Shown here: positions 1 through 12,798 of the stretch, piece after piece
Position numbering within the stretch: position 1 is the stretch's first letter
Layout: every line of letters starts with the position of its first letter
IMG/VR virus record: IMGVR_UViG_643692022_000004
Reading direction: 5' to 3' (one strand)
Length of the DNA stretch: 12,837 nt
Source: a virus
Taxonomy: Duplodnaviria > Heunggongvirae > Uroviricota > Caudoviricetes
Translations under genes and position numbers: made by a program
The notes under the pieces: generated by a model
Databases searched by the model: none
Seen by the model: the letters and a program-made list of their open reading frames with translations, nothing else
Told to the model about the DNA's origin: nothing

Positions 1-243
1 TCACTCACTTACCAGCCAGAATTCCGCTTCTTCGAACATTTCCTGAACGACGGCACTTATCCGCTCTTTCTCATGTTTGCTGGCATCCGTGTTAATCGCT
101 GGCAGTGTCATCATCGGTTTAACCCGGACATCTGCATCCGGGAAGATCCGGTGCACTCTCTTACTCAGTTCATCTAAAATGATCTCTTTTGCACCAGGCA
201 GACCATCAAAATTCCTTTTGTCATAAACGAGTTCCACGAACAT
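1..243 (-). CDS. DinI-family DNA-damage-inducible protein (80 aa)
   Basis: Complete minus-strand ORF: ATG at 243-241, TGA at 3-1, AAGAGG-like RBS about 7 nt upstream. The C-terminal half (ELSKRVHRIFPDADVRV...KERISAVVQEMFEEAEFWLVSE) resembles E. coli DinI as I recall it (…ELSRRIQYAFPD…KQRISEILQETWESADDWFVSE). Two LexA-box-like palindromes lie immediately upstream. Confidence 0.7.
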   Translation of the reverse strand: MFVELVYDKRNFDGLPGAKEIILDELSKRVHRIFPDADVRVKPMMTLPAINTDASKHEKERISAVVQEMFEEAEFWLVSE

Positions 244-300: not shown

Positions 301-459
301 TATTCAAGATATGGCACTTCGCATCTACTATTCAGATGCACGCCTACATCATCAATGATGTGAGAACGGTAGAGCTTGAGGATTATATTTTTGTACGCAT
401 AAGCAGACTGAATTCGCAATACGCGGGTTCAGATTCTTGATAAATTGCGCATTGTTCCT

Positions 460-557
460 GCCGGATGCGGGGTAAATGTTTTGTTCGTTCTGAAATGTCA
501 ATAAAATACAATGCATTTCAGGAGGTTAGTCGGCCTGATAAGCGTAGCGCATCAGGC
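460..557. repeat. REP-like extragenic palindromic sequences
   Basis: GCCGGATGCGG (460-470) and the imperfect palindrome GGCCTGATAAGCGTAGCGCATCAGGC (532-557) match the enterobacterial REP/PU motif family from memory; no convincing ORF covers them. Confidence 0.45.
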
Positions 558-963
558 AATTTGCATTTGTCATCAGTCGCAATCCGCATTACATGGTTCT
601 TTATTGTCACTACTCAAATTCGCTGTCGCCATTTTGCCGCCACAGCCCAAGAAAAAGGCTACGCTTTCGCGTATCCATTTGATTTATTTTATGAGTGCGA
701 AATATCGTCAGCACACACTTCTATGGCTCTGTCTTTCTTTACATTCCACCTACGCTCGGCAACTAACAGAAAGTGTTGGTATTGGCCTCATGGGAATTTC
801 TCGCTGTTTTTTCTGATGTTCCAGAGGAGCGTCATTGCCATGAGTCGTCTCCATGCTTTTAGACCCAATGAAAACGATGGTTCTTTTCGTTGGGCCTGAC
901 AATGGGCTTAAAAAGTTCAGAATAAATTAGTTTGCTTGAGATTTTGCGAGACAAATTGAAGGC

Positions 964-984
964 ACAAAAAAGCCCGCAGGGCTT
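964..984 (-). terminator. Intrinsic-terminator-like hairpin, probable displaced ancestral ssrA terminator
   Basis: On the minus strand AGCCC-tgc-GGGCT is followed by a 6-T run (966-971). It is a near-identical copy of the hairpin just downstream of the ssrA 3' end at 12368-12386. Confidence 0.4.
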
Positions 985-1044
985 GCGCCATGCAGGCTTT
1001 CAGGACTTCATCGGATGGCTCTGGTAATCACCGATGGAGAATTT

Positions 1045-1066
1045 TGGTGGGCTGGCGGAGTTTGAA
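1045..1066. other. Distal attachment site (attL-like): degenerate direct repeat of the ssrA 3' end
   Basis: tggtgggctggcggagtttgaa versus the ssrA 3' terminus tggtggagctggcgggagttgaacc at 12436-12460 (shared blocks tggtgg / gctggcgg / agtt / gaa), in the same orientation and again adjacent to a copy of the terminator hairpin. Confidence 0.45.
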
Positions 1067-1119
1067 TAAATATTGTATTGCTTTGATTTTTAATGATTTT
1101 ATTTAATTCAGTTTTTATG

Positions 1120-1141
1120 CGTATACCTAATCGTATACCAA
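1120..1141. promoter_or_regulatory. Putative integrase arm-type binding sites (alpha-proximal arm)
   Basis: cgtatacct-aat-cgtataccaa; the same two motifs recur four times, in both orientations, at 12272-12323 next to int and the ssrA core. Confidence 0.35.
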
Positions 1142-1200
1142 TGGCTGTAAGTTAATGTGAAATGAAAGCGTATTTTTATTTGGATTGATGCTATATCGTA

Positions 1201-1500
1201 CAGGAAAAAATTTTTTTTCGAAAGAACTGTTCACACTGTTCACCCTTTGATTTTCTCCTTTTATTTCATAGTGATAGGTGGTGAATAATGGGTGAAGGGT
1301 GAACATTCGATTCTTCACCTCCGGCATTCTGCCGGTGTGACTCATACCGGTGATTAATCCCCCGTACTGAAAATCGCACAGGGAGAAAAAAGTTTTTTTT
1401 GATTTGATTGTTCACACTGTTCACCTTTCATTTTTCTCTTTTAATTTCAGTGTGATAACGGGTGAACATACGGTGAAGGGTGAACAGTGGATTGTTCACC
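1201..1500. repeat. crr-like cis replication region: two ~120-bp direct repeats carrying TGTTCACC-type octamer iterons
   Basis: Unit 1 (~1201-1320) and unit 2 (~1381-1500) each begin with an A-run/T-run and contain tgttcaca, tgttcacc and inverted ggtgaaca copies (e.g. 1228-1244, 1298-1305, 1409-1425, 1461-1468, 1479-1486, 1493-1500). TGTTCACC is the recalled binding octamer of the P4 alpha C-terminal domain. Confidence 0.7.
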
Positions 1501-1518
1501 TTCGGGGAATTCAGGGAT

Positions 1519-1543
1519 AAAAAAAGACCGGCAGATGCCGGTC
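1519..1543 (-). terminator. Rho-independent terminator of the leftward operon, just after alpha
   Basis: On the minus strand a 7-bp stem GACCGGC/GCCGGTC (1526-1532 / 1537-1543) with a 4-nt loop is followed by a 7-T run (1519-1525), 8 nt after the alpha stop codon at 1551-1553. Confidence 0.55.
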
Positions 1544-1550
1544 AGGTGGG

Positions 1551-3884
1551 TCAGGCTGTTGCAGGGTCGTCACATTTTGGCAGCCAGTCGCCGTAGCTTT
1601 CCTCTTTCAGTGTCAGGTTGGTCTGTATCCCCTGTTTGGTATGGCGCTTCTCGTAATTCAGTCCGTATTCCTTCAGCATCACCGGCAGCCCCAGCCCGAA
1701 CATTTTCAGACTGAGTACATTCCGGTAGCCGTTTGCCTCCATGTAGGCCAGATAGGCGTGATAGAGGTATTTACGGTAATTACGCGGGATGATACTGGCG
1801 TTCCCCATATACATGCCGCTGGTCTGCGGCAGGGTTTCCAGATAGCCGATAAAATCAAACGTCGGGTCGGCATCCCGTTTGATGTTCAGTGCCTCGTCTG
1901 AGTTCTGCTGGGACTGAAGCAGTGACCGGGCGAGCATCGGGTCGCTGAACTTCTGCATCAGGTGACGCACGATGACCGCCAGCTCGCGGGTGATTTTGTC
2001 CTTAAGCTGCGGGTCGCGCTCCTGCGGGGCTATCTGTTCCGGGAAGTGAATAATCACCCGCCGGCGTGACACGCCGCCGCTGCGGTCGGTGAAGCGCATC
2101 GGGTTATTGTTCACGGCCAGAATCACCGCCGGGATGTGCGTGGAGTACGCATCCCGGTATTTCGGGTCAACGGACACTGCATCGCCGCCGGTGATGGCCT
2201 TGAGTCCGGCTCCGTCGCCGCTCCATTTTTCCTGGTCCGGCAGGCGTATCAGTGAGAAGCCAGTTAACGCGGCACGTTCACGCGGGGATTCCAGCGTCTC
2301 AATGGTGGCCGACGTGGCGTTATCCTCACCGGCCAGCAGGGTGGCTATTTCGGCCATGATACTTTTGCCGCTGCCGCCGGGACCGGTCACCTCCAGAAAG
2401 AGCTGCCAGTCGTAGCGGTTTGCCAGCACCATAAACAGTGCGGCCAGAATCACGTCGCGTTTTTCCGCACGACCACCGGCAGCACGGTCAAGCCAGCGCC
2501 AGAACGCGGGAGCGTGGGTTTCCAGCGTTTCACCGTCCACCGGCGGGGTGAAATCCACATCACACAGGGTACGCATCCAGTGTGACGGACTGTGCGGGTG
2601 GAACGTACCGTTCTGCGTGTCGAGCACGCCGTTACGAAAGCCAATCAGGCGGCGGGAGGGGGCTTCCTGCTGCGGAATAATCAGCTTCAGGGTGTCCACC
2701 ACGGAGGCCACCTTCCCGGAGGAGAATGGCGCGCGCAGACGCTGAAACAGCCCGGCCACATCCCGGGCAAAGTCCTGTGGCGGCAGCACCTTCCAGACAC
2801 CATTTTCATAGCGGGACAGAAGCTGGCCGTTGGCATCGACCGCGAGCGCCTCGCCGTAATGCTCATAGATACGCATGGCCTTTTCGCTGGTACTCATGGC
2901 GGAAAACTCCGCTTCGCTCATGGTGTCGAACGGGCTTTCAGCCGGTGGCCGGATGGCATCATAAATGGCCTTACGGGTGGCCTCCCCGCCGTACTGCGTG
3001 AAGGCATCATTCCAGTCACCGAAGACCGGCGGCAGGGCAACAACACCTTCACACGCATCTGCGGCTGCGGCGGCTTTTTTCTGGCCGTCACCGCTGAGGT
3101 CACGGTCAGCGGCAAGGACAATCTGACAGGCGGGGTGCTTCTGCCGGGCAAGGCTGGCCAGAGAAAGGAGGTTCACGGAAGAAAGCGCCACCATCACCGT
3201 TTCACCGGTCAGGTGATGCACGGTAAGTGCGGTCGCGTATCCCTCCGCTATCCACAGACGTTTTCCGGCCTGATTCTGTCCTTCAAGGATGTGACAGGTG
3301 CCCCTGACCTGTCCGCCTTTCAGGGTGCGCTTACGGCCGTCAGCACTGATTAACTGAAGGTTAACCAGTTCGCCGCGGTCGTCATACAGTGGCACCACAA
3401 GGTCACCGGCGCGCCAGCTCACGCCACCGGCTCTGTGTGTGCCGGTCAGCATCCGGCATTCCCGGCCGGGAAAGCCCTTGCGGGTCAGGTAGGCGTTACC
3501 GGTTCCGGGACGGGTTTTCGCCATCAGGGTTTGTGCCAGTGCGGCGGCGTTCTTCCGGGCAGCGTCTGTTTCAGCAACAGCGGCGGTCGTCACTGCCGGG
3601 TCAGCCGGGGGCAGGCTGCCGGTCACGGCAGCCACCTTTGCGGCCGCATCGGACGGGGAAACACCAAACACCTTTTCAACCAGTTTCAGGCCGTCACCGG
3701 CACCACACTGATTGCAGTACCAGGTGCCGCGCCCCTCCCTGTCATCAAAACGGAAGCGGTCACTCCCGCCACAGACCGGACAGGGCTGATGACGGTTCTT
3801 CAGCACCTGAATCCCCAGCGCCGGGAGGATACGCGGCCAGTGGCCGAGTGCATGGCTGACGGTGGCGGTTACGTTCATTTTCAT
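1551..3884 (-). CDS. alpha: P4 alpha-type primase-helicase (777 aa)
   Basis: ATG at 3884 with AAGGAG RBS. N-terminal zinc-binding primase motif CPVCGGSDRFRFDDREGRGTWYCNQCG, Walker A VTGPGGSGKS of a D5/SF3-type helicase, and length matching the recalled 777 aa of P4 alpha. Flanked by its cognate octamer iterons. Confidence 0.95.
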   Translation of the reverse strand: MKMNVTATVSHALGHWPRILPALGIQVLKNRHQPCPVCGGSDRFRFDDREGRGTWYCNQCGAGDGLKLVEKVFGVSPSDAAAKVAAVTGSLPPADPAVTTAAVAETDAARKNAAALAQTLMAKTRPGTGNAYLTRKGFPGRECRMLTGTHRAGGVSWRAGDLVVPLYDDRGELVNLQLISADGRKRTLKGGQVRGTCHILEGQNQAGKRLWIAEGYATALTVHHLTGETVMVALSSVNLLSLASLARQKHPACQIVLAADRDLSGDGQKKAAAAADACEGVVALPPVFGDWNDAFTQYGGEATRKAIYDAIRPPAESPFDTMSEAEFSAMSTSEKAMRIYEHYGEALAVDANGQLLSRYENGVWKVLPPQDFARDVAGLFQRLRAPFSSGKVASVVDTLKLIIPQQEAPSRRLIGFRNGVLDTQNGTFHPHSPSHWMRTLCDVDFTPPVDGETLETHAPAFWRWLDRAAGGRAEKRDVILAALFMVLANRYDWQLFLEVTGPGGSGKSIMAEIATLLAGEDNATSATIETLESPRERAALTGFSLIRLPDQEKWSGDGAGLKAITGGDAVSVDPKYRDAYSTHIPAVILAVNNNPMRFTDRSGGVSRRRVIIHFPEQIAPQERDPQLKDKITRELAVIVRHLMQKFSDPMLARSLLQSQQNSDEALNIKRDADPTFDFIGYLETLPQTSGMYMGNASIIPRNYRKYLYHAYLAYMEANGYRNVLSLKMFGLGLPVMLKEYGLNYEKRHTKQGIQTNLTLKEESYGDWLPKCDDPATA

Positions 3885-3898
3885 GGTGTTGTTCTCCT

Positions 3899-4219
3899 TC
3901 AGTGCAGTACCGGCGCTTTTATGTGACGGGCACAGAGTTCATCCATCACAACCAGCCCGAGAAAGGACAGCGACGGCGCGGCCTTCAGGGGGCCGGATTC
4001 CATTAAATCTTCCAGCAGGGCACAGGCTATCTGACGCCCTTTTTCCTCACCGTGCTGGTGCAGATAAAAGCCTTCCAGCTCAGCGGCGATGGCCGCCTCC
4101 AGTGACTCAAGGGTGAGATGCGGGTAGCGGTGCTGACGTTCGCACACGGTCAGCCAGGCACAGGCGACAGCGCGACGGTAAAGGGCAGCGCGTAAGACGG
4201 GCGGTAAGGGGGTTTTCAT
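3899..4219 (-). CDS. P4 orf106-like hypothetical protein (106 aa)
   Basis: ORF of the length and position of P4 orf106, between orf151 and alpha; its stop (3899-3901) overlaps the alpha RBS. Function unknown. Confidence 0.7.
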
Positions 4220-4354
4220 TTGTTTTCCTCCCTGTGACAGATGACTGCATTCCGTGCCGGTTGCATTAACTGATAAGGCATATCTGCGTCTCCTGAAGAC
4301 GTGCGTATCCCTGCGCGAATACGCACATTTAATTTTTCGGGTGTCGTTTTTTAA

Positions 4355-4810
4355 TTACAGATAATTGCGGTAACTGTTATCCGGGGTGATTTCCGGGTCA
4401 GGCTCCGTGCGGGGAATTTCCCGCCATTCCCGCGCCACCGGTGCCGCCCGGCTGACCGGAACAGGGTCCTGCGGGTAAATATCCAGATATTTCTCCCGCC
4501 ATTTCTGTAATTCCGGGTCTCCGGCCATTTCTTTCAGTACCGCATGCCGGTTTACGGGGCTGCGTTTAAACAGGTCAGGACGGTCACAGGTAAATTCCCG
4601 CAGAAAACGCCCCAGCGGGATGTCTGTGGTGCGCCCGTCAGCGAGGATACGCACAAGGATACTGAATTTACGGCGGTACGGGTTCCAGACAATGTCCGGG
4701 CAGCGGTACGGCATTTCCCACGGAATACCGTCTTCCAGAATGCCGACCACGGCCACATCGGGAAAACCGGCAGAACGGTAAATCTCACCAGGCTGGGGAA
4801 AATCAAACAT
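4355..4810 (-). CDS. P4 orf151-like hypothetical protein (151 aa)
   Basis: ORF of the length and position of P4 orf151; its ATG (4810-4808) overlaps the epsilon stop (4803-4805), suggesting translational coupling. Confidence 0.7.
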   Translation of the reverse strand: MFDFPQPGEIYRSAGFPDVAVVGILEDGIPWEMPYRCPDIVWNPYRRKFSILVRILADGRTTDIPLGRFLREFTCDRPDLFKRSPVNRHAVLKEMAGDPELQKWREKYLDIYPQDPVPVSRAAPVAREWREIPRTEPDPEITPDNSYRNYL

Positions 4811-5090
4811 GCGTCCTGTCTCCCCGGTCTTTCTGCTGGGCGAGAAAATCGCGGCACAGGCCTTTGGCTTTCAGCTCATTCAGCACAAAATCAATATCTT
4901 CATTCAGGTAGCTGAAAATATGCGGAATGTAGAGCTGATGCAGGCCGGAGAGTTCACGGTGAATCAAATCACCCCCAACAAACTGGGATACGGCGCTGGC
5001 GCGGTTGAGCTTATGGTAAGCCTCAATGCTGAGGTGTTCACGGGCGTCATGACGCGCTGAGACGGTCTGAGGGGCTTTTTTATTACGCAC
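4803..5090 (-). CDS. epsilon: Epsilon-like protein (95 aa; P4 anti-repressor that derepresses the helper prophage)
   Basis: Position immediately downstream of the immunity region and upstream of orf151/alpha, as in P4. The start appears to be GTG (5090-5088) preceded by a G-rich RBS. Identity rests on synteny and size, not on a recalled sequence. Confidence 0.6.
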
Positions 5091-5283
5091 GGGACACCCC
5101 CATCACTGGCAGACGGGCAGCAAGGGAGAGCACATAGTCACGGACAAGGGAACGGCGGGCGCTGCGTTCATCACCGGCGACGGTGCGAAGCATGCAGATA
5201 CGGGGATGACGGTCTGCGCGACGGACAGCCGCAAACACAAAGACAAATTCAGGGTGTGAAGGGGTAAGGGTTGTAGCCATGAT

Positions 5284-5402
5284 GGCAGCCTCCGTTAGAT
5301 AGCAGGTTACGCTATCGCCGGAGTTTCCACGCTCGATGGCGATAGCCCAGACGGGGGTGGAAATACCGGCTCTAACGGATACCGGCCAGCCCGGAGGCTG
5401 CC
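5284..5402 (-). ncRNA. Candidate CI-like immunity RNA (structured RNA in the P4 immunity region)
   Basis: Perfect 11-bp long-range inverted repeat ggcagcctccg (5284-5294) / cggaggctgcc (5392-5402) enclosing a perfect 9-bp hairpin gctatcgcc (5311-5319) / ggcgatagc (5338-5346). The locus lies between vis and epsilon where P4 encodes the CI RNA. Exact ends are uncertain. Confidence 0.3.
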
Positions 5403-5528
5403 CCGCCTGAGCTACCATTGACTCTGCGGCATAATGAGCGGACGCGGGCAGGATGCACGGAGTGCCATCTGCTCGACTGACCACACACCACACCATAATC
5501 TGGCGCTCTGTGGCGTTGATTGCGACAC

Positions 5529-5550
5529 AAAAAAAGACGCATGGCGCGTC
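5529..5550 (-). terminator. Candidate attenuator/terminator hairpin in the leader between the early promoter and the CI-like RNA
   Basis: On the minus strand the stem GACGC/GCGTC (5546-5550 / 5536-5540) with loop GCCAT is followed by a 7-T run (5529-5535). The stem is short, so the call is weak. Confidence 0.35.
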
Positions 5551-5613
5551 ATATGTCGCCGTTAGATTGCTCGGGTTTCCACGCCCGGCTGCCGATTTTG
5601 CGACAGCGGAAAA

Positions 5614-5643
5614 ACTATATCCGCAAATGCCGGAAAAAGGCAA
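5614..5643 (-). promoter_or_regulatory. Candidate sigma70 promoter (PLE-like) downstream of vis
   Basis: On the minus strand TTGCCT (5643-5638), an 18-bp spacer, then TATAGT (5619-5614), directed toward the immunity region and epsilon. Hexamer match by eye only. Confidence 0.25.
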
Positions 5644-5678
5644 GCCAGAAAAAGGGAGTTTTTGCAGAGCGGGCATCA

Positions 5679-5945
5679 TCATGCGTCGTACCCCCGTTTG
5701 CGTCCGGCAATGCGCCCGGCCATCCATGCGGTGACTTCAGAGTGCAGCCAGGCCACATTTTTACCGCCAAGACTCACCTGCGGCGGAAATTCCCCCTTAC
5801 GGATGAGTTCATAGATGGTCGAGCGTGACAGGCCGCACAGGTGCATCACTTCCGGAAGACGTAAAAAACGCTCCTGTGTGATGTCCGGCAGCGGCATCAG
5901 TGGCGTCACAGGGGCGGGAGACGGGGAAGAAAAAACAGCTTGCAT
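5679..5945 (-). CDS. vis: Vis-like excisionase/transcriptional regulator (88 aa; AlpA/Xis-type helix-turn-helix)
   Basis: 88-aa ORF with a GAGG RBS. Contains the AlpA/Vis-type motif [45 protein letters not shown]. Same size and position as P4 orf88 (vis) between the late promoter region and the immunity region. Confidence 0.8.
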
Positions 5946-6090
5946 CGGGCTACCTCGTTAATGTCCATACAGCACCGGATAAGTCCGTCCGGCTTCGGGT
6001 AGCGCTTTATTTTGTGAATATTTTCAGCAGACGCAACAGGGGGGATTTGTTCCGGCAGCCTTACAATGCTTGTGTATTTTTTGTTCATCT

Positions 6091-6120
6091 CCACTTAAAG
6101 TCATTTAAAGCCACTTAAAG
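6091..6120. promoter_or_regulatory. Three phased 10-bp direct repeats upstream of vis (candidate Vis/PLL operator)
   Basis: ccacttaaag / tcatttaaag / ccacttaaag are exactly contiguous with 10-bp periodicity, about 150 bp upstream of the vis start codon. Confidence 0.3.
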
Positions 6121-6224
6121 CAATTCGTAATTTTTATAGTGAAATACAAATCGTTTTTTCTTATTCATTCCCGGCGAATTAATAAAAACAAACAGTAATA
6201 AACAGCACAAAAAGCCCATCAACG

Positions 6225-6328
6225 GGTGAACAGTGGTGAACAGACGGTGAACAGTCATTACTGCGATTGTTCACCCTTTAACTTACTGTATTACTTATCT
6301 TTTTTCTTATGGTGAACAGAGGTGAACA
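6225..6328. repeat. ori-like replication origin: cluster of six GGTGAACA/TGTTCACC octamer iterons
   Basis: ggtgaaca at 6225-6232, 6235-6242, 6246-6253, 6311-6318, 6321-6328 and tgttcacc at 6268-6275, followed by an A/T-rich stretch (6331-6350). Same octamer as in crr, and located between vis and sid as in P4. Confidence 0.65.
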
Positions 6329-6408
6329 GTAAAATATAAAAAAAATAAACAGTAAGCCGTTTTTTCCAGCGACCTTTTCCTGGCTTGCCGGTGTGAGGAT
6401 GAGTCTCC

Positions 6409-6426
6409 TGTGTCAGGGCTGGCACA
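6409..6426 (+). promoter_or_regulatory. Psid-type late promoter activator site (TGT-N12-ACA dyad for Delta/Ogr-family activators)
   Basis: TGTgtcagggctggcACA, centred roughly 80 bp upstream of the sid ATG, consistent with the recalled P2/P4 late-promoter architecture (dyad centred near -55). Confidence 0.5.
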
Positions 6427-6498
6427 TCTGCAATGCGTCGTGTTGTTGTCCGGTGTACGTCACAATTTTCTCAACCTGAAGTGACGAGGAGCCGGAAA

Positions 6499-7233
6499 AT
6501 GTCTGACAACACCATCCCTGAATATCTGCAACCCGCACTGGCACAACTGGAAAAGGCCAGAGCCGCCCACCTTGAGAACGCCCGACTGATGGATGAGACC
6601 GTCACGGCCATTGAACGGGCAGAGCAGGAAAAAAATGCGCTGGCGCAGGCCGACGGAAACGACGCTGACGACTGGCGCACGGCCTTTCGTGCAGCCGGTG
6701 GTGTCCTGAGCGACGAGCTGAAACAGCGCCACATTGAGCGCGTGGCACGCCGGGAGCTGGTACAGGAATATGACAATCTGGCCGTGGTGCTGAATTTCGA
6801 ACGTGAACGCCTGAAAGGGGCGTGTGACAGCACGGCCACCGCCTACCGGAAGGCACATCATCACCTTCTGAGTCTGTATGCAGAGCATGAGCTGGAACAC
6901 GCCCTGAATGAAACCTGTGAGGCGCTTGTCCGGGCAATGCATCTGAGCATTCTGGTACAGGAAAATCCGCTCGCCAACACCACCGGCCATCAGGGCTACG
7001 TCGCACCGGAAAAGGCTGTCATGCAGCAGGTGAAATCATCGCTGGAACAGAAAATTAAACAGATGCAAATCAGCCTCACCGGCGAGCCGGTTCTCCGGCT
7101 GACCGGACTGTCAGCGGCAACACTTCCTCACATGGATTATGAGGTGGCAGGCACACCGGCACAGCGCAAGGTGTGGCAGGACAAAATAGACCAGCAGGGA
7201 GCAGTGCTTAAGGCCAGAGGACTGCTGTCATGA
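6499..7233 (+). CDS. sid: Sid-like capsid size determination (external scaffold) protein (244 aa)
   Basis: ATG at 6499 preceded by AGGAG (6486-6490); the track ORF begins 66 nt further upstream but lacks an RBS. The product starts MSDNTIPEYL and is 244 aa, the recalled length of P4 Sid. First gene of the sid-delta-psu operon. Confidence 0.85.
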   Translation: MSDNTIPEYLQPALAQLEKARAAHLENARLMDETVTAIERAEQEKNALAQADGNDADDWRTAFRAAGGVLSDELKQRHIERVARRELVQEYDNLAVVLNFERERLKGACDSTATAYRKAHHHLLSLYAEHELEHALNETCEALVRAMHLSILVQENPLANTTGHQGYVAPEKAVMQQVKSSLEQKIKQMQISLTGEPVLRLTGLSAATLPHMDYEVAGTPAQRKVWQDKIDQQGAVLKARGLLS

Positions 7234-7730
7234 TTTACTGCCCGTCGTGTGGACATGTTGCTCACACCCGCCGCGCACATTTCATGGACGATGGCACCAA
7301 GATAATGATTGCACAGTGCCGGAATATTTATTGCTCTGCGACATTTGAAGCGAGTGAAAGCTTTTTCTCTGACAGTAAAGATTCAGGAATGGAATACATT
7401 TCAGGCAAACAGAGATACCGCGATTCACTGACGTCAGCCTCCGGCAGTATGAAACGCCCGAAAAGAATGCTTGTTACCGGATATTGTTGTCGGAGATGTA
7501 AAGGCCTTGCACTGTCAAGAACATCGCGGCGTCTGTCTCAGGAAGTCACCGAGCGTTTTTATGTGTGCACGGATCCGGGCTGTGGTCTGGTGTTTAAAAC
7601 GCTTCAGACCATCAACCGCTTCATTGTCCGCCCGGTCACGCCGGACGAACTGGCAGAAATCCTGCATGAAAAACAGGAACTGCCGCCAGTACGCTTAAAA
7701 ACACAATCATATTCGCTGCGTCTGGAATGA
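7230..7730 (+). CDS. delta: Delta-like late transcriptional activator (166 aa, tandem Ogr-type zinc-finger domains)
   Basis: Start overlaps the sid stop (ATGA at 7230-7233). Two Cys4 modules: CPSCGH...CRNIYC and CRRCKG...CTDPGC. Length equals the recalled 166 aa of P4 Delta. Confidence 0.9.
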   Translation: MIYCPSCGHVAHTRRAHFMDDGTKIMIAQCRNIYCSATFEASESFFSDSKDSGMEYISGKQRYRDSLTSASGSMKRPKRMLVTGYCCRRCKGLALSRTSRRLSQEVTERFYVCTDPGCGLVFKTLQTINRFIVRPVTPDELAEILHEKQELPPVRLKTQSYSLRLE

Positions 7731-7803
7731 GGGCTGCCGGTTAACACCGGCCGTCGCCGCACACCGTATTTTTATTCTTCACCATGATGAGAAAGAGATA
7801 ACG

Positions 7804-8376
7804 ATGGAAAGCACAGCCTTACAGCAGGCCTTTGACACCTGTCAGAATAACAAAGCAGCATGGCTGCAACGCAAAAATGAGCTGGCTGCGGCCGAACAGG
7901 AATATCTGCGGCTTCTGTCCGGGGAAGGCAGAAACGTCAGTCGCCTGGACGAATTACGCAATATTATCGAAGTCAGAAAATGGCAGGTGAATCAGGCTGC
8001 CGGTCGTTATATTCGTTCGCATGAAGCCGTTCAGCACATCAGCATCCGCGACCGGCTGAATGATTTTATGCAGCAGCACGGCACAGCACTGGCGGCCACA
8101 CTGGCACCGGAGCTGATGGGCTACAGTGAGCTGACGGCCATTGCCCGAAACTGTGCCATACAGCGTGCCACAGATGCCCTGCGTGAAGCCCTTCTGTCCT
8201 GGCTTGCGAAGGGGGAAAAAATTAATTATTCCGCACAGGATAGCGACATTTTAACGACCATCGGATTCAGGCCTGACGCGGCTTCGGTGGATGACAGCCG
8301 TGAAAAATTCACTCCTGCGCAGAACATGATTTTTTCGCGTAAAAGTGCGCAACTGGCATCACATCAGTCTGTGTAA
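7804..8376 (+). CDS. psu: Psu-like polarity suppression / capsid decoration protein (190 aa)
   Basis: 190-aa ORF starting MESTALQQAFDTCQNN, matching my recollection of P4 Psu in sequence start and length; last gene before cos. Confidence 0.9.
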   Translation: MESTALQQAFDTCQNNKAAWLQRKNELAAAEQEYLRLLSGEGRNVSRLDELRNIIEVRKWQVNQAAGRYIRSHEAVQHISIRDRLNDFMQQHGTALAATLAPELMGYSELTAIARNCAIQRATDALREALLSWLAKGEKINYSAQDSDILTTIGFRPDAASVDDSREKFTPAQNMIFSRKSAQLASHQSV

Positions 8377-8411
8377 AACTCCCCGAAAATCCGCCCGTTT
8401 TTACTGAAAAA

Positions 8412-8450
8412 AGCCATGCATCGATAAGGTGCATGGCTTTGCATGCGTTT
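8412..8450 (+). terminator. Candidate terminator of the late operon
   Basis: 8-bp stem AGCCATGC/GCATGGCT (8412-8419 / 8431-8438) followed by a T-containing tail (ttgcatgcgtttt), about 35 nt after the psu stop. Confidence 0.4.
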
Positions 8451-8540
8451 TCCTGCCTCATTTTCTGCAAACCGCGCCATTCCCGGCGCGGTCTGAGCGT
8501 GTCAGTGCAACTGCATTAAAACCGCCCCGCAAAGCGGGCG

Positions 8541-8559
8541 GGCGAGGCGGGGAAAGCAC
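8541..8559. other. cos site (P2/P4-type 19-nt cohesive end)
   Basis: GGCGAGGCGGGGAAAGCAC matches the P2/P4 cohesive-end sequence as I recall it; preceded by a GC-rich hairpin CCGCCCCGC-aaa-GCGGGCGG (8522-8543). Confidence 0.65.
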
Positions 8560-8575
8560 TGCGCGCTTAAGTATA

Positions 8576-11026
8576 TTATTGTTTTGCACTTAAAATATTA
8601 TCAACAACTCGTTTCACACTTTCGAAAGATGACTCTCCTGTTTTAAAAGATTCGTTCATGTCAAAATAACTAGGTTTATTTACAAAACTACTCCAAGCAT
8701 TTGACAGGTAATCTTTGAATGCAATGGAGCGTTTATATCGATCCTCAATATTGAATGACTCACATGAAGCTCGCATATTATTGACTACTTCAGGATTAAA
8801 TATAGGAGTGTCAAATACCATTGCATCAAGATAGGCGAAATCACTTATCCATCGCTTGAGATGATACAAACCAATAGATGTGATTCTAAATTTCGTTGGC
8901 ATTTCTCCTATTAAACCTGTTTCGTCCTCTTCAAATGTAAACCTCTGTGAGGTCTCTATTAATTTTTTGTTTGTCGTTCTTCTTAGCGCATTTTCAGTCT
9001 GCTCAGGAATAAAACCAAGGCTTTGCATTTCATCTATAATGGACTTGGTTAGACAGAATCCATCCCGGTCCTGAAGCTCTTTTTTTTCTGATAATAGCGC
9101 CATTATTAATGGTACTAAAAAGTGTTCTGATATATCTGCAAAAGAAACATCAAAAATATTCATGGCAAGAGATGTGTTTGGATCAAAGTGTGAATATTCA
9201 CCAAGTAAAGCTTGTTTAGAAAATTCATGTACAGGAATTATATATCTACCTTCTTCTTCGTAAGTTCGAATTATTTTATCCGCTTCAACATTTGGGCTGC
9301 CTATAAAACCAGTAATAAAGCTAAGCGCTTGTCTTACATTGCCTCCCGTAATGTTTTCAATAAACTCTCCTAGTGATTTATTTTTTCTTAGAGATTGAAG
9401 CAATACTCTGATAAATGAAGAAAGATTGTCTATATGGATTCTAACAAATTCGGCATGTTCAAGAGGTATCTTTCCTTCAGACATTTCGAGAGCAAACTGA
9501 AGTCGTTTATCAAGAACTTGATCTATCCTTGGTGGTGCAATTGTAAAGACCTTGTGGGGATAAGCAGTTAATGCACCTGATGCTTTTGATTTAAAGAATG
9601 TCTGAGGTCTGACAGATATAAATACTAAAGCATTCCAATCTTTTGCTAACTCCTGAGAAATAACAAATGCTCGCTGTTGCGTTTCGAAATCTCGTTGATC
9701 AGCATTATCTAGACAAATAATTACTTGCTTTTTAGTTTGTTTTGATAAATGAGCGATTGAGTTTTTTAAATGTTCATCTTTAGCATCTAATTTTTCCGCC
9801 AACATCTCAAGTTGTTTTTCCTCATATCGTTCTCTATTTGAATCTCGTAAACTCCCCCAGATTCCTTTTGAAAACCTTTGAATATCTCTTGAATATACGC
9901 CTTTAACAAATTTCATTTCGGTTATATCACAGGAGTATTTATTGTCTAGTTGTTGCTCTATCTCATTTAATATAAATTTTTGAAGATTATTAGCTAATGT
10001 TGCTTTAGAGCCTAAATCTATATATAAATAAATTGCCTCTTTAAATTCTTTGAATGCACTTGAATAAATTAAATTTTTTACAAATGACGTTTTACCAACA
10101 CCAACATCACCAATTAATACAATTGGACGCTTTGATAGAGCCTCGGCCATAATACTTGGATCTAAAGTTTGCTCTTTACGATCAGGTTTAACAGAAGTTA
10201 TATGTGGAGATAATTCATTGTCACTAAATAGAGCAGCATATCTGGCTTGAAGCATTTCTTTACTTAGCAAAGCATATTTTGAAAGGGCACCACTTTCGCA
10301 GTAGCATTTTTGGTAAAAAATCTCTTCAATTTCATTGCTTTCAAGAGCATCTTGAATTATTAATTCTGATATTTGTCTTAATGAGGTCTGTATATCACTA
10401 GCATAGCGTATTTTAGGATACATTGATAAATAGGTTGATAATTTATTTGGAATACCACTTATGTCAGAGGTAAGATACTTAATTAAACGTTGTTCTTTCA
10501 CACCGTAATATGAAAGCATATTCCATGCTAAAGAAAAGTTCCGTAATAAAGAATCCAAACTGTCAAAAACTAAAGCTTTTCCCTCTAAAGGCGAACAGCC
10601 ATTTTGAGTGCTTGCAATAAATGATATAAATTGATGTCCATTAGTGGCTATTGCAATTGGTGTTCCTCGTGATGAACAATATTTTTGTACCTGTATAATT
10701 GCGTCTTTTAAATCGTCATTTGATCTTAAGAGAGTTGGTATGTCGATTATGTTCTTATTTGATAAACCTGCTGGTATTTCAAAAGTCCGGCCTTCTCTTT
10801 TCGCTTCAACAATAACTTGCCGTGGCTTTCCTAATTCATAATCTGTAAAAGTATGATCATGATAGTTTTCAACTTCTATTTGATCATCAGGCCAGCTAAG
10901 AACGTCAATAATTATTTTGTTTATTATATGATGCCTAGTCTGGGCTTCATTTCTTATCTTGGCGCTGTCACTATATTCGTTTACTAATTCTCTTAATAAA
11001 TTTTCGGCTTGTATCATTGTAACCAT
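8576..11026 (-). CDS. Candidate anti-phage defence protein: N-terminal PD-(D/E)xK nuclease (HsdR-N/Mrr-like) fused to a P-loop NTPase with a C-terminal domain of unknown function (816 aa)
   Basis: Uninterrupted 816-codon ORF, ATG at 11026 with GGAGAG RBS 7 nt upstream. Residues ~26-76: NEAQTRHHIINKII...IEVE...DYEL...VIVEAKREG, the E/D/ExK pattern of HsdR-N/Mrr-type nucleases. Walker A GDVGVGKTS (~306-314), extended Walker B VIICLDNADQ (~435-444), and GGNVRQAL (~561-568) resembling an AAA+/STAND sensor motif. No SF2 helicase motifs. Sits in the P4 psu/cos-int slot; strongly AT-rich against a GC-rich backbone. Confidence 0.85.
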   Translation of the reverse strand: MVTMIQAENLLRELVNEYSDSAKIRNEAQTRHHIINKIIIDVLSWPDDQIEVENYHDHTFTDYELGKPRQVIVEAKREGRTFEIPAGLSNKNIIDIPTLLRSNDDLKDAIIQVQKYCSSRGTPIAIATNGHQFISFIASTQNGCSPLEGKALVFDSLDSLLRNFSLAWNMLSYYGVKEQRLIKYLTSDISGIPNKLSTYLSMYPKIRYASDIQTSLRQISELIIQDALESNEIEEIFYQKCYCESGALSKYALLSKEMLQARYAALFSDNELSPHITSVKPDRKEQTLDPSIMAEALSKRPIVLIGDVGVGKTSFVKNLIYSSAFKEFKEAIYLYIDLGSKATLANNLQKFILNEIEQQLDNKYSCDITEMKFVKGVYSRDIQRFSKGIWGSLRDSNRERYEEKQLEMLAEKLDAKDEHLKNSIAHLSKQTKKQVIICLDNADQRDFETQQRAFVISQELAKDWNALVFISVRPQTFFKSKASGALTAYPHKVFTIAPPRIDQVLDKRLQFALEMSEGKIPLEHAEFVRIHIDNLSSFIRVLLQSLRKNKSLGEFIENITGGNVRQALSFITGFIGSPNVEADKIIRTYEEEGRYIIPVHEFSKQALLGEYSHFDPNTSLAMNIFDVSFADISEHFLVPLIMALLSEKKELQDRDGFCLTKSIIDEMQSLGFIPEQTENALRRTTNKKLIETSQRFTFEEDETGLIGEMPTKFRITSIGLYHLKRWISDFAYLDAMVFDTPIFNPEVVNNMRASCESFNIEDRYKRSIAFKDYLSNAWSSFVNKPSYFDMNESFKTGESSFESVKRVVDNILSAKQ

Positions 11027-11049
11027 CGAAAACTCTCCAAATGAAAAAA

Positions 11050-12249
11050 TTAAAAGGATAAAGATTTATGAACAAAAGAACTCCACCAGTTCATTAAATT
11101 CTTCCTTTGTTCTAAGTAAGTAGAACGGTTATAAGCTTTTCTGACTTCATTCTTATCGCTATGAGCTAAGGCTGATTCTATTACATCAGCGTTAAATTCG
11201 GCTTCATTCATTGCAGTGCTGGCAATAGAACGTAAACCATGAGCAACGAGTTTTCCACCATATCCTATCCTTTTTAAAGCGGCATTTGCAGTTTGGCTAT
11301 TCATGGGTTTTTGTGGATCATTTCTACTTGGGAAAACATACTCACGATGAGCACTAATAGTTTTCATAACTTCAAGAATATCTAAAGCCTTAGGTGATAA
11401 AGGTACAATATGTTCGCGCTTAGCTTTCATCCTTTCAGCAGGAATTCTCCAGAGTTTTGCATCAAAATCGATCTCCTTCCATTGAGTGCCTGAAGCCTCT
11501 GAAGGGCGCACAAGGGTGAGTAGTTGCCATTCAATCAGACAACGGGTCTGCACAGAAAGATTTGACATAGATAAAGAATACATAAGTTTCGGTAATTCTT
11601 CAGGTCGTAGTGTTGGCATGTTTTTCTTTTTAGGTTTCTCAAATGCCATACCAATACCTGATGCAGGATTAGCGTCAATTAAGCCAGTATTAACGGCATA
11701 AATCATAATTTCATTAATACGTTGTACCAAACGACGAACAGTTTCAAGTGCTCCACGAGCTTTAATTGGTTCTAAGGTTTCAATTAATGTACGAGCTTTT
11801 ATTTTCTGAACAGGAATTTCACCGATAGTAGGGAAAATATCTCTCTCTAAGGAGCGCCATACATCCTTTGCGTAATCAGGTGTTACGTTGTTTCTTTTTA
11901 TGGCAAACCATTTTGAGGCAACGTTTGAAAAAATACTATCTTCCGCAATCTGTTGCTGTACAGTGACTTGCTCACTGTATATCTGTGGATCAATACCTCG
12001 GGCCAGCAAGGAAAGATACTCAGCACGAGTGTTTCTGGCTTCAGCCAGAGAAAGGGCAGGGAAAGACCCTAAACCAATCATGGTTCGTTGTTTTGTTACT
12101 GGTTTCTGGTATCGGAAACGCCACAGCTTCCTACCGTTCGTTTTTACGAGTAGAAAAAGTCCATTACCATCATGTAGCGTTAGATCCTTTGCAGTTGCTT
12201 TAGCCCGTGATAGTTCAGTGTTAGTAAGAGGGCGTGTTGTACGTGACAC
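11050..12249 (-). CDS. int: Tyrosine integrase (P4-family, 399 aa), ssrA-specific
   Basis: N-terminus typical of P4-family integrases (...RPLTNTELSRAKA...LHDGNGLFLLVKTNGRKLWRFRY...), C-terminal catalytic region with HGLR and a tyrosine in KAYNRSTY. Apparent GTG start at 12249 with a GAGGT RBS. Directly adjacent to the ssrA 3' end. Confidence 0.9.
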   Translation of the reverse strand: MSRTTRPLTNTELSRAKATAKDLTLHDGNGLFLLVKTNGRKLWRFRYQKPVTKQRTMIGLGSFPALSLAEARNTRAEYLSLLARGIDPQIYSEQVTVQQQIAEDSIFSNVASKWFAIKRNNVTPDYAKDVWRSLERDIFPTIGEIPVQKIKARTLIETLEPIKARGALETVRRLVQRINEIMIYAVNTGLIDANPASGIGMAFEKPKKKNMPTLRPEELPKLMYSLSMSNLSVQTRCLIEWQLLTLVRPSEASGTQWKEIDFDAKLWRIPAERMKAKREHIVPLSPKALDILEVMKTISAHREYVFPSRNDPQKPMNSQTANAALKRIGYGGKLVAHGLRSIASTAMNEAEFNADVIESALAHSDKNEVRKAYNRSTYLEQRKNLMNWWSSFVHKSLSF

Positions 12250-12271
12250 GATTATCCTACCTCAGAGAGAA

Positions 12272-12323
12272 TTGGTATACGCTTTTAGGTATACATCTTA
12301 CCGTATACCTAAACGTATACCAA
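12272..12323. promoter_or_regulatory. Cluster of four arm-type integrase-binding-like repeats between int and the att core
   Basis: ttggtatacg (12272-12281), aggtatac (12287-12294), cgtatacct (12302-12310), cgtataccaa (12314-12323): two motifs in inverted then direct orientation, and the same pair recurs at 1120-1141. Overlaps the expected int promoter. Confidence 0.4.
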
Positions 12324-12367
12324 TAATCACTGGATTTAGCGGGATATTCTCGGACAACTGCGGACAC

Positions 12368-12386
12368 AAAAAAGCCCACAGGGCTT
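12368..12386 (-). terminator. Rho-independent terminator downstream of ssrA, supplied by the element
   Basis: On the minus strand AGCCC-tgt-GGGCT is followed by a 6-T run (12368-12373), about 50 nt beyond the tmRNA 3' CCA end. Confidence 0.5.
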
Positions 12387-12435
12387 GTGCCATGCGGGCT
12401 TTCAGGATTTTTCCGGACATATCCGGAAGAGCAAG

Positions 12436-12798
12436 TGGTGGAGCTGGCGGGAGTTGAACCCGCGTCCGAAATTCCTACATCCTCGGTACTACATGCTTAG
12501 TCAGTCTTTACATTCGCTTGCCAGCTGCGGACGGACACGCCACTAACAAACTAGCCTGATTAAGTTTTAACGCTTCAACCCCAGGCAGGGCTTCCACGCG
12601 ATCTCTTTTGGGTTTGACCTCTCTTGATCCCCGTCCTAAGAGCGGAGGCTAGGGAGAGAGGGCTCTAAGCAGGTTATTAAGCTGCTAAAGCGTAGTTTTC
12701 GTCGTTTGCGACTATTTTTTGCGGCTTTTTACGAGGCCAACCGCCCCTCGGCATGCACCTTGGGTTTCGCAAATCCCGTCGAATCCAGAATCAGCCCC
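12436..12798 (-). ncRNA. ssrA: tmRNA (transfer-messenger RNA)
   Basis: Reverse complement begins GGGGCTGATTCTGGATTCGACGGG and ends ...GGTTCAACTCCCGCCAGCTCCACCA; contains the tag reading frame GCAAACGACGAAAACTACGCTTTAGCAGCTTAA (ANDENYALAA). 363 nt, matching E. coli ssrA as recalled. Confidence 0.95.

Follow-up and report, generated by a model that had tools for sequence, protein, structure and literature searches.

What is the roughly 0.5 kb of DNA that lies between a DinI-family gene and a partial copy of the 3′ end of the tmRNA gene, ssrA, at the outer edge of a resident P4-like satellite? The question arises from a preliminary description of the 12,837-nucleotide stretch of DNA analysed here (the window), which placed at positions 440–960 a segment without a convincing gene, containing REP-like palindromes and only two weak, overlapping plus-strand open reading frames (ORFs) of 144 and 101 amino acids. 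The segment was thought to be either the decayed residue of an element that had once inserted at ssrA or the source of a small RNA. Our analysis bore out the description itself: the segment holds no credible gene, both ORFs are present at those sizes, REP-type palindromes occur, and the flanks are the DinI-family gene on one side and the distal partial ssrA copy on the other (Table 1). The GC content over the stretch is 43–45%, making it AT-richer than the genome. With regard to origin, the decayed-insertion proposal proved correct, and in fact two insertions can be recognised, one of a P2/Fels-2-like phage and one of a CP4-57-like island. Our main reading, to which we assign a probability of about 0.9, is that 440–960 consists of functionless scar tissue at the ssrA integration hotspot.

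Table 1. Features in and around the segment between the DinI-family gene and the distal ssrA copy, in window coordinates
Feature	Coordinates	Strand	Details
DinI-family gene	1–243	-	Pfam DinI, 68 bits
BIME-like REP cluster	423–587	.	Perfect REP hairpin and degenerate half-REP with an AT-rich linker between them
Degenerate half-REP	459–473		No convincing fold
Perfect REP hairpin	532–557		GCCTGATGCGCTACGCTTATCAGGCC; -8.6 kcal/mol, z = -3.8
ORF144	465–899	+	144 aa
ORF101	511–816	+	101 aa
ogr-proximal attP arm remnant of a Fels-2/SopEPhi-type P2-family prophage	572–690	+	595–689 supported by BLAST
Small hairpin with T-run	673–660	-	Inside the phage arm
Internal fragment of a CP4-57 IntA-type tyrosine integrase	692–828	-	Codons ~88–133; two single-base deletions, in-frame stops
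Junction of a 253-bp internal deletion	829–834		Removed intA codons ~3–87
intA start and fossil upstream/promoter region	835–965	-	ATG at 841–839; the intA coding sequence of the E. coli reference locus (L001) ends at 3399
ssrA-type intrinsic terminator	966–1000	-	Terminator scan; hairpin -12.6 kcal/mol, z = -3.3
Distal att copy (partial ssrA 3′ end)	1045–1066	-	22 nt, imperfect; TGGTGG-GCTGGCGG-AGTTTGAA, compared with the intact end at 12436
Resident P4-like satellite	1067–12435		
Live tmRNA gene ssrA	12436–12798	-	

When the whole of 440–960 was compared with E. coli by megablast, only REP noise was returned; the integrase and phage-arm matches emerged from REP-free sub-queries searched in sensitive mode. 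Of the REP-like palindromes reported earlier, one was fully confirmed and the other only in part. The former follows the REP consensus (GCCKGATGCG ... CTTATCMGGCC, an imperfect palindrome), forms a perfect hairpin and is an exact match of a kind that arose by chance 0 times in 200 shuffles; the latter is a degenerate half-site. Window positions 442–587 match 19,529 places in 4,907 of the 5,426 complete E. coli genomes, with a median of 3 per genome at megablast stringency, which gives the sequence the many dispersed extragenic copies typical of REP/BIME elements as counted in the sister species E. coli rather than in this organism's own genome. One such place, and the best example, is the rlmC–artJ intergenic region of E. 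coli, which aligned with the entire cluster at 76.5% identity (local BLAST). Like E. coli REP/BIME elements, the block is extragenic, has the canonical palindrome GCCTGATGCG...CTTATCAGGCC and is BIME-like over its full length, but here the second REP is degenerate. The REP part, which forms the edge of the scar towards the chromosome, is thus a BIME of host type and does not derive from an island. Between it and the dinI promoter, about 125 bp (317–441) had no match in either E. coli genomes or phages; a hairpin with a 10-bp stem is present within this interval at 408–432.

The neighbouring sequence resembles the end of a prophage. Fels-2/SopEPhi-type P2 phages integrate at ssrA, and within the last piece without an assignment (565–691), positions 595–689 are 77–79% identical to Fels-2, SopEPhi, RE2010, SEN8 and the P2-like prophage of E. 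coli S1, although the match is short, at 97 nt. In the Fels-2 record the match occupies nucleotides 21–117, between ogr (139–357) and the annotated att core (1–23), and in E. coli S1, in which the P2-like prophage adjoins ssrA, it falls between ogr and the ssrA 3′ end. More weakly, positions 572–594 resemble a decayed ogr terminator. The segment therefore has the ogr-to-att-core arm of the Felsduovirus members of the P2 family (Fels-2, SopEPhi, RE2010 and SEN8), in the same orientation to ssrA as in a Fels-2-type lysogen. In contrast to a Felsduovirus attP, it lacks ogr, the other phage genes and the att core, and is joined to an integrase fragment of a different element. On the left, REP sequence is found in place of any homology to ogr; on the right, the arm homology ends within about 3 nt of the expected start of the att core, where the window continues as an intA fragment instead of the ssrA-identical core TGGTGGAGCTGG. 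We considered whether a degenerate ssrA core persists at this junction (TGAGTGCG versus TGGAGCTGGCG) and rejected the idea, because these bases align better with intA (18/22).

The preliminary description had also advised a check for remnants of a frameshifted integrase, and one was found. With the REP-free query 575–960, the sensitive search returned annotated intA genes beside ssrA in 1,402 E. coli genomes. The internal fragment corresponds to 3001–3139 of L001, with 81.3% nucleotide identity, and a tblastn alignment with intA pairs FLLVAERRWNVKKDRAIEVCADDISHS with FLLVAERWWNVKKASVTEDYADDIWRS. Beyond the fragment, a second, continuous match of 86.5% aligns window 835–1062 with L001 3393–3622. 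Within it are the opening seven bases of intA, the entire intA–ssrA spacer, in which the ssrA terminator lies, and the final 20 nt of ssrA, so that homology to the E. coli ssrA end reaches window position 1062. Between the two BLAST segments there are 6 nt in the window, as against 253 nt in E. coli (L001 3139 to 3393).

These two collinear matches, together with the deletions and in-frame stops, indicate that the minus strand of 692–841 holds a dead integrase of the CP4-57 IntA type, which retains its original ssrA spacer; on sequence grounds, it is an intA pseudogene remnant. Like CP4-57 IntA and the ssrA–intA junction of E. coli K-12, to which it is 81% and 86.5% identical, respectively, it has the same orientation and spacing relative to ssrA, and it directly follows ssrA in strains that carry no island. 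Unlike its K-12 counterpart, it is frameshifted and has neither a catalytic domain nor island cargo. An intact ORF of about 400 amino acids with arm-binding, central and catalytic (R-H-R-Y) domains is not present: everything past codon ~133 is missing, in addition to the sequence lost in the internal deletion. The possibility that the remnant is a copy of the resident integrase (11050–12249) was rejected, because the two do not match at the nucleotide level and resident Int shares only 60% identity with E. coli IntA. Taken together, the BIME, arm and intA homologies make the stretch a mosaic of 423–587, approximately 572–690, 692–828, 829–834, and 835–960 and beyond, in which both the homologies and the junctions were observed directly.

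The terminator upstream of the dead integrase directly follows ssrA in three island-free loci (L005–L007). It is functional in such strains and orphaned in this one. A further copy of an ssrA-type terminator is carried by the resident island itself, at 12356–12417, and is 82% identical to 954–1015 over 62 nt and 91% identical over a core of 46 nt. Because the P4-like element integrated with its own terminator copy, the live ssrA gene is terminated by island DNA, which leaves the older terminator orphaned. That older terminator may be native or island-borne, its assignment to a CP4-57-like element resting only on its contiguity with the intA upstream region; in other genera, an ssrA-type terminator is native beside ssrA. 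The terminator used by island-free strains is contiguous with island-derived DNA.

The preliminary description had proposed a nucleotide search against related genomes, and we compared ten chromosomal loci (L003–L012); the identical DinI protein sequence occurs on many assemblies. Positions 244–1062 are 98.4–99.8% identical in nine of the ten. Among these nine, three have no island (L005–L007), three have P4-like satellites (L004, L009 and L010) and three have unrelated islands (L003, L011 and L012), as directly observed. The exact 26-mer that spans the arm/intA junction is present in all nine and was not found in a collection with one genome per species. The stretch is the same whatever island is present, and it abuts an intact ssrA in L005–L007; the scar therefore predates the resident P4-like element and does not depend on it. 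Its identity of about 99% is no greater than that of the neighbouring DNA, and such within-species identity is too high to measure selection on non-coding sequence.

The tenth locus, L008, differs. Positions 244–683 are retained in all ten genomes, but in place of 684–1062 L008 carries a different integrase, itself intact, together with a CAP12/Pycsar-type TIR gene and an IS200 element, and the common sequence resumes at 683. We rejected the view of L008 as the undeleted ancestral island, because its integrase is a much more divergent homologue and its arm junction is the IS200 end.

With regard to the host lineage, L003 is CP079884, a chromosome published as Escherichia fergusonii 6S41-1 (PMC9204285). 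The recN gene of L005 is 95–99% identical to that of E. coli, and the stretch was found in none of the 5,426 complete E. coli genomes. From the species name of CP079884, the recN identity and the absence from E. coli, the window is most likely E. fergusonii chromosome. Several small cargos that differ between genomes and resemble defence genes were seen at ssrA in this lineage: the integrase, CAP12/Pycsar-type TIR protein and IS200 of L008 (4398–7560), a DarT and NADAR protein pair in L011 (5726–7042), and SIR2/AbiH-like and ankyrin-like genes in L012 (3446–6679). In this lineage, the ssrA site is a defence-island hotspot.

At the outer edge of the resident island, the distal ssrA copy lacks the T corresponding to U357 of tmRNA and one C (CGCCAGC-CCACCA, compared with 12436–12460). 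T357 is missing from the distal copy in every island-bearing related genome, and the ssrA end is intact in island-free strains. In E. coli K-12, excision of CP4-57 has been reported to create ssrA ΔT357, which inactivates trans-translation (PMC10107115). By analogy, a ΔT357 switch on island excision may apply here too.

Several other features of the resident island were recorded. The motif CGTATACCTAA(T/A)CGTATACCAAT occurs near both ends (1120–1142 and 12302–12324), with an inverted partial copy at 12271–12284, and these repeated end motifs may be arm-type integrase binding sites. Beside the primase gene, two direct repeats of 121 nt (1204–1505), which share 79% identity and are spaced 181 nt apart, contain many TGTTCACC motifs, with further copies near 6218–6287; the repeats at 1204–1505 look like a P4-type ori/crr iteron arrangement. 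Matches above the Rfam gathering score to C4 antisense RNA (5335–5422, minus strand, 76 bits) and isrK (5530–5607, minus strand, 72.5 bits) fit with a P4-type RNA immunity region. The interval between psu and the integrase is a variable cargo position in P4-like elements. Here, between psu (7804–8376) and the integrase, lies an 816-aa ORF on the minus strand (8576–11026) with a weak P-loop match (AAA_22, 28.5 bits) and a marginal PADLOC match to mad8 (E = 2.5e-4); it may be an uncharacterised defence ATPase, and we regard it as a candidate only.

On the other side of the segment, the dinI-like gene is found near ssrA in several genera. In Silvania hatchlandensis, 175 bp separate ssrA from dinI, with the same terminator type, a LexA-box promoter and a dinI-like gene; in Trabulsiella, the distance is 270 bp; and in Kluyvera, Leclercia and Mangrovibacter, a dinI-like gene lies beside partial ssrA copies. 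This repeated adjacency makes the dinI-like gene look like an ancestral neighbour of ssrA, rather than recent prophage cargo. The interval of about 800 bp in this lineage has been swollen by scars. In the window, a LexA-box-like site, TACTGTATTTCTAACCAGTA (CTG-N10-CAG), is present at 284–303 upstream of the DinI-like gene, and a lexA binding site is annotated in the homologous region of gp22 in phage phiKO2. An independent ssrA–dinI scar was seen in Kluyvera sp. STS39-E (L044 5150–6000), in which two ssrA-type terminator copies flank about 600 bp; this scar contains a small ORF that begins MKKLLMVALIAAAVSGCAQQ and looks, by eye, like a lipoprotein signal peptide.

From these observations a history of the scar can be proposed. 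Its sequence of steps and the amount of DNA deleted are inferred solely from how the site is arranged today, and that the scar has no function is likewise inferred. The ancestral order, which Silvania retains, would have been ssrA, terminator and a LexA-controlled dinI-like gene. Into the 3′ end of ssrA a Fels-2-like P2 prophage would then have inserted, its ogr end adjacent to that gene, followed at the same site by a CP4-57-like island, which would have placed its intA next to ssrA and pushed the phage away. Deletions would subsequently have removed nearly all of both elements. What was left over would be some 100–120 bp of the phage att arm fused to intA codon ~133, the intA start codon with codons ~88–133, and the upstream spacer with the ssrA-type terminator (842–1044). 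Last, in this strain, the P4-like satellite would have arrived, so that the old scar now lies between its distal att copy and dinI. No intermediate state between the insertions and the present scar was found, and both old scars lack a partial ssrA core at their distal edge.

Three other explanations of the segment were weighed. It might not be older DNA but belong to the resident P4-like island and form its distal end, a reading that its position against the distal att copy of the island and its AT-richness relative to the genome could suggest. However, the stretch lies outside the att repeats (1045–1066 and 12436 onwards) and has no nucleotide similarity to the island except in the terminator copy. 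The reading is refuted by the island-free loci, in which the stretch, at 99–99.8% identity, sits directly beside ssrA, as well as by its presence in strains with unrelated islands, and we regard its probability as negligible. Nor do we give much credence to an orphan protein-coding gene, a highly improbable reading for either ORF144 or ORF101. Both ORFs have ATG starts and are open in the window and in most of the related genomes, but they run through the REP palindrome, the phage att arm and the antisense of the integrase fragment. Neither they nor the minus-strand ORFs matched a family in Pfam, PHROGs or NCBIfam, and the corresponding interval is free of gene calls in all ten related genomes. 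Moreover, coding constraint is observably lacking: ORF144 is disrupted in two of the ten (a frameshift in L003 and a truncation in L008) and ORF101 in three (a nonsense mutation in L004, a frameshift in L003 and a truncation in L008). A conserved, intact protein gene in the interval, which would have spoken against the preliminary description, was looked for in this comparison and is absent. ORF144 and ORF101 are chance frames across the REP, the phage arm and the antisense of the integrase fragment.

The small-RNA alternative, also raised in the preliminary description, gained no positive support, and we consider it improbable. Two forms of it can be envisaged: a minus-strand transcript that would start at the fossil intA promoter and end at the hairpin and T-run in the phage arm, or an RNA that would end at the orphan ssrA-type terminator, in the manner of Salmonella IsrM. 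In favour of a small RNA are minus-strand terminator-like hairpins at 984–970 and 673–660, an intA upstream region kept at 86.5% identity to E. coli, the retention of 244–683 in all ten genomes and a match of the IsrM model (RF02763) to the terminator at 966–1041. That match, the only notable one in the relaxed search, scores 28–31 bits against a gathering score of 376, covers the terminator hairpin only and falls outside 440–960; other relaxed matches had E > 0.05, and at gathering thresholds Rfam 15 gave no match in 1–1110. The locus has an ssrA-type terminator hairpin in common with IsrM, but the match extends over only about 50 of the model's 329 nt and the IsrM body is absent. The remaining evidence also goes against a small RNA: the minus strand of 560–700 folds no better than shuffled sequence (z = -0.44), a promoter scan returned hits at chance level (3 versus 2.0 ± 1.4) with none on the minus strand, L008 is entirely without 684–1062, and retention at about 99% is no more than that of the surrounding DNA. 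One version, in which the fossil intA promoter (~842–960) would fire a non-coding minus-strand transcript of about 200–300 nt ending at the arm hairpin, is marginally less probable still. If true, it would be a lineage-specific small RNA built from two unrelated scars, loosely comparable to Salmonella island small RNAs such as IsrM.

Scar tissue left by successive insertions thus accounts for the segment, and an integration-site scar is of an ordinary, well-known kind that would not surprise a specialist. As at the known ssrA-site hotspot, integration at the 3′ end is repeated, and the older elements, pushed distally, decay to leave partial copies of the ssrA 3′ end and integrase pseudogenes. 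There is no difference in kind; the Fels-2-like arm/intA mosaic in the E. fergusonii lineage is a specific instance, and it provides a small, clean record of successive ssrA integrations by a P2-like phage, a CP4-57-like island and a P4-like satellite. Its main relevance is to annotation. The remnant of the dead integrase (692–841) is best annotated as a fragment of an intA pseudogene, neither ORF144 nor ORF101 should be called as a gene, and the resident island properly ends, on its outer side, at the partial ssrA copy (1045–1066) rather than at the dinI-like gene.
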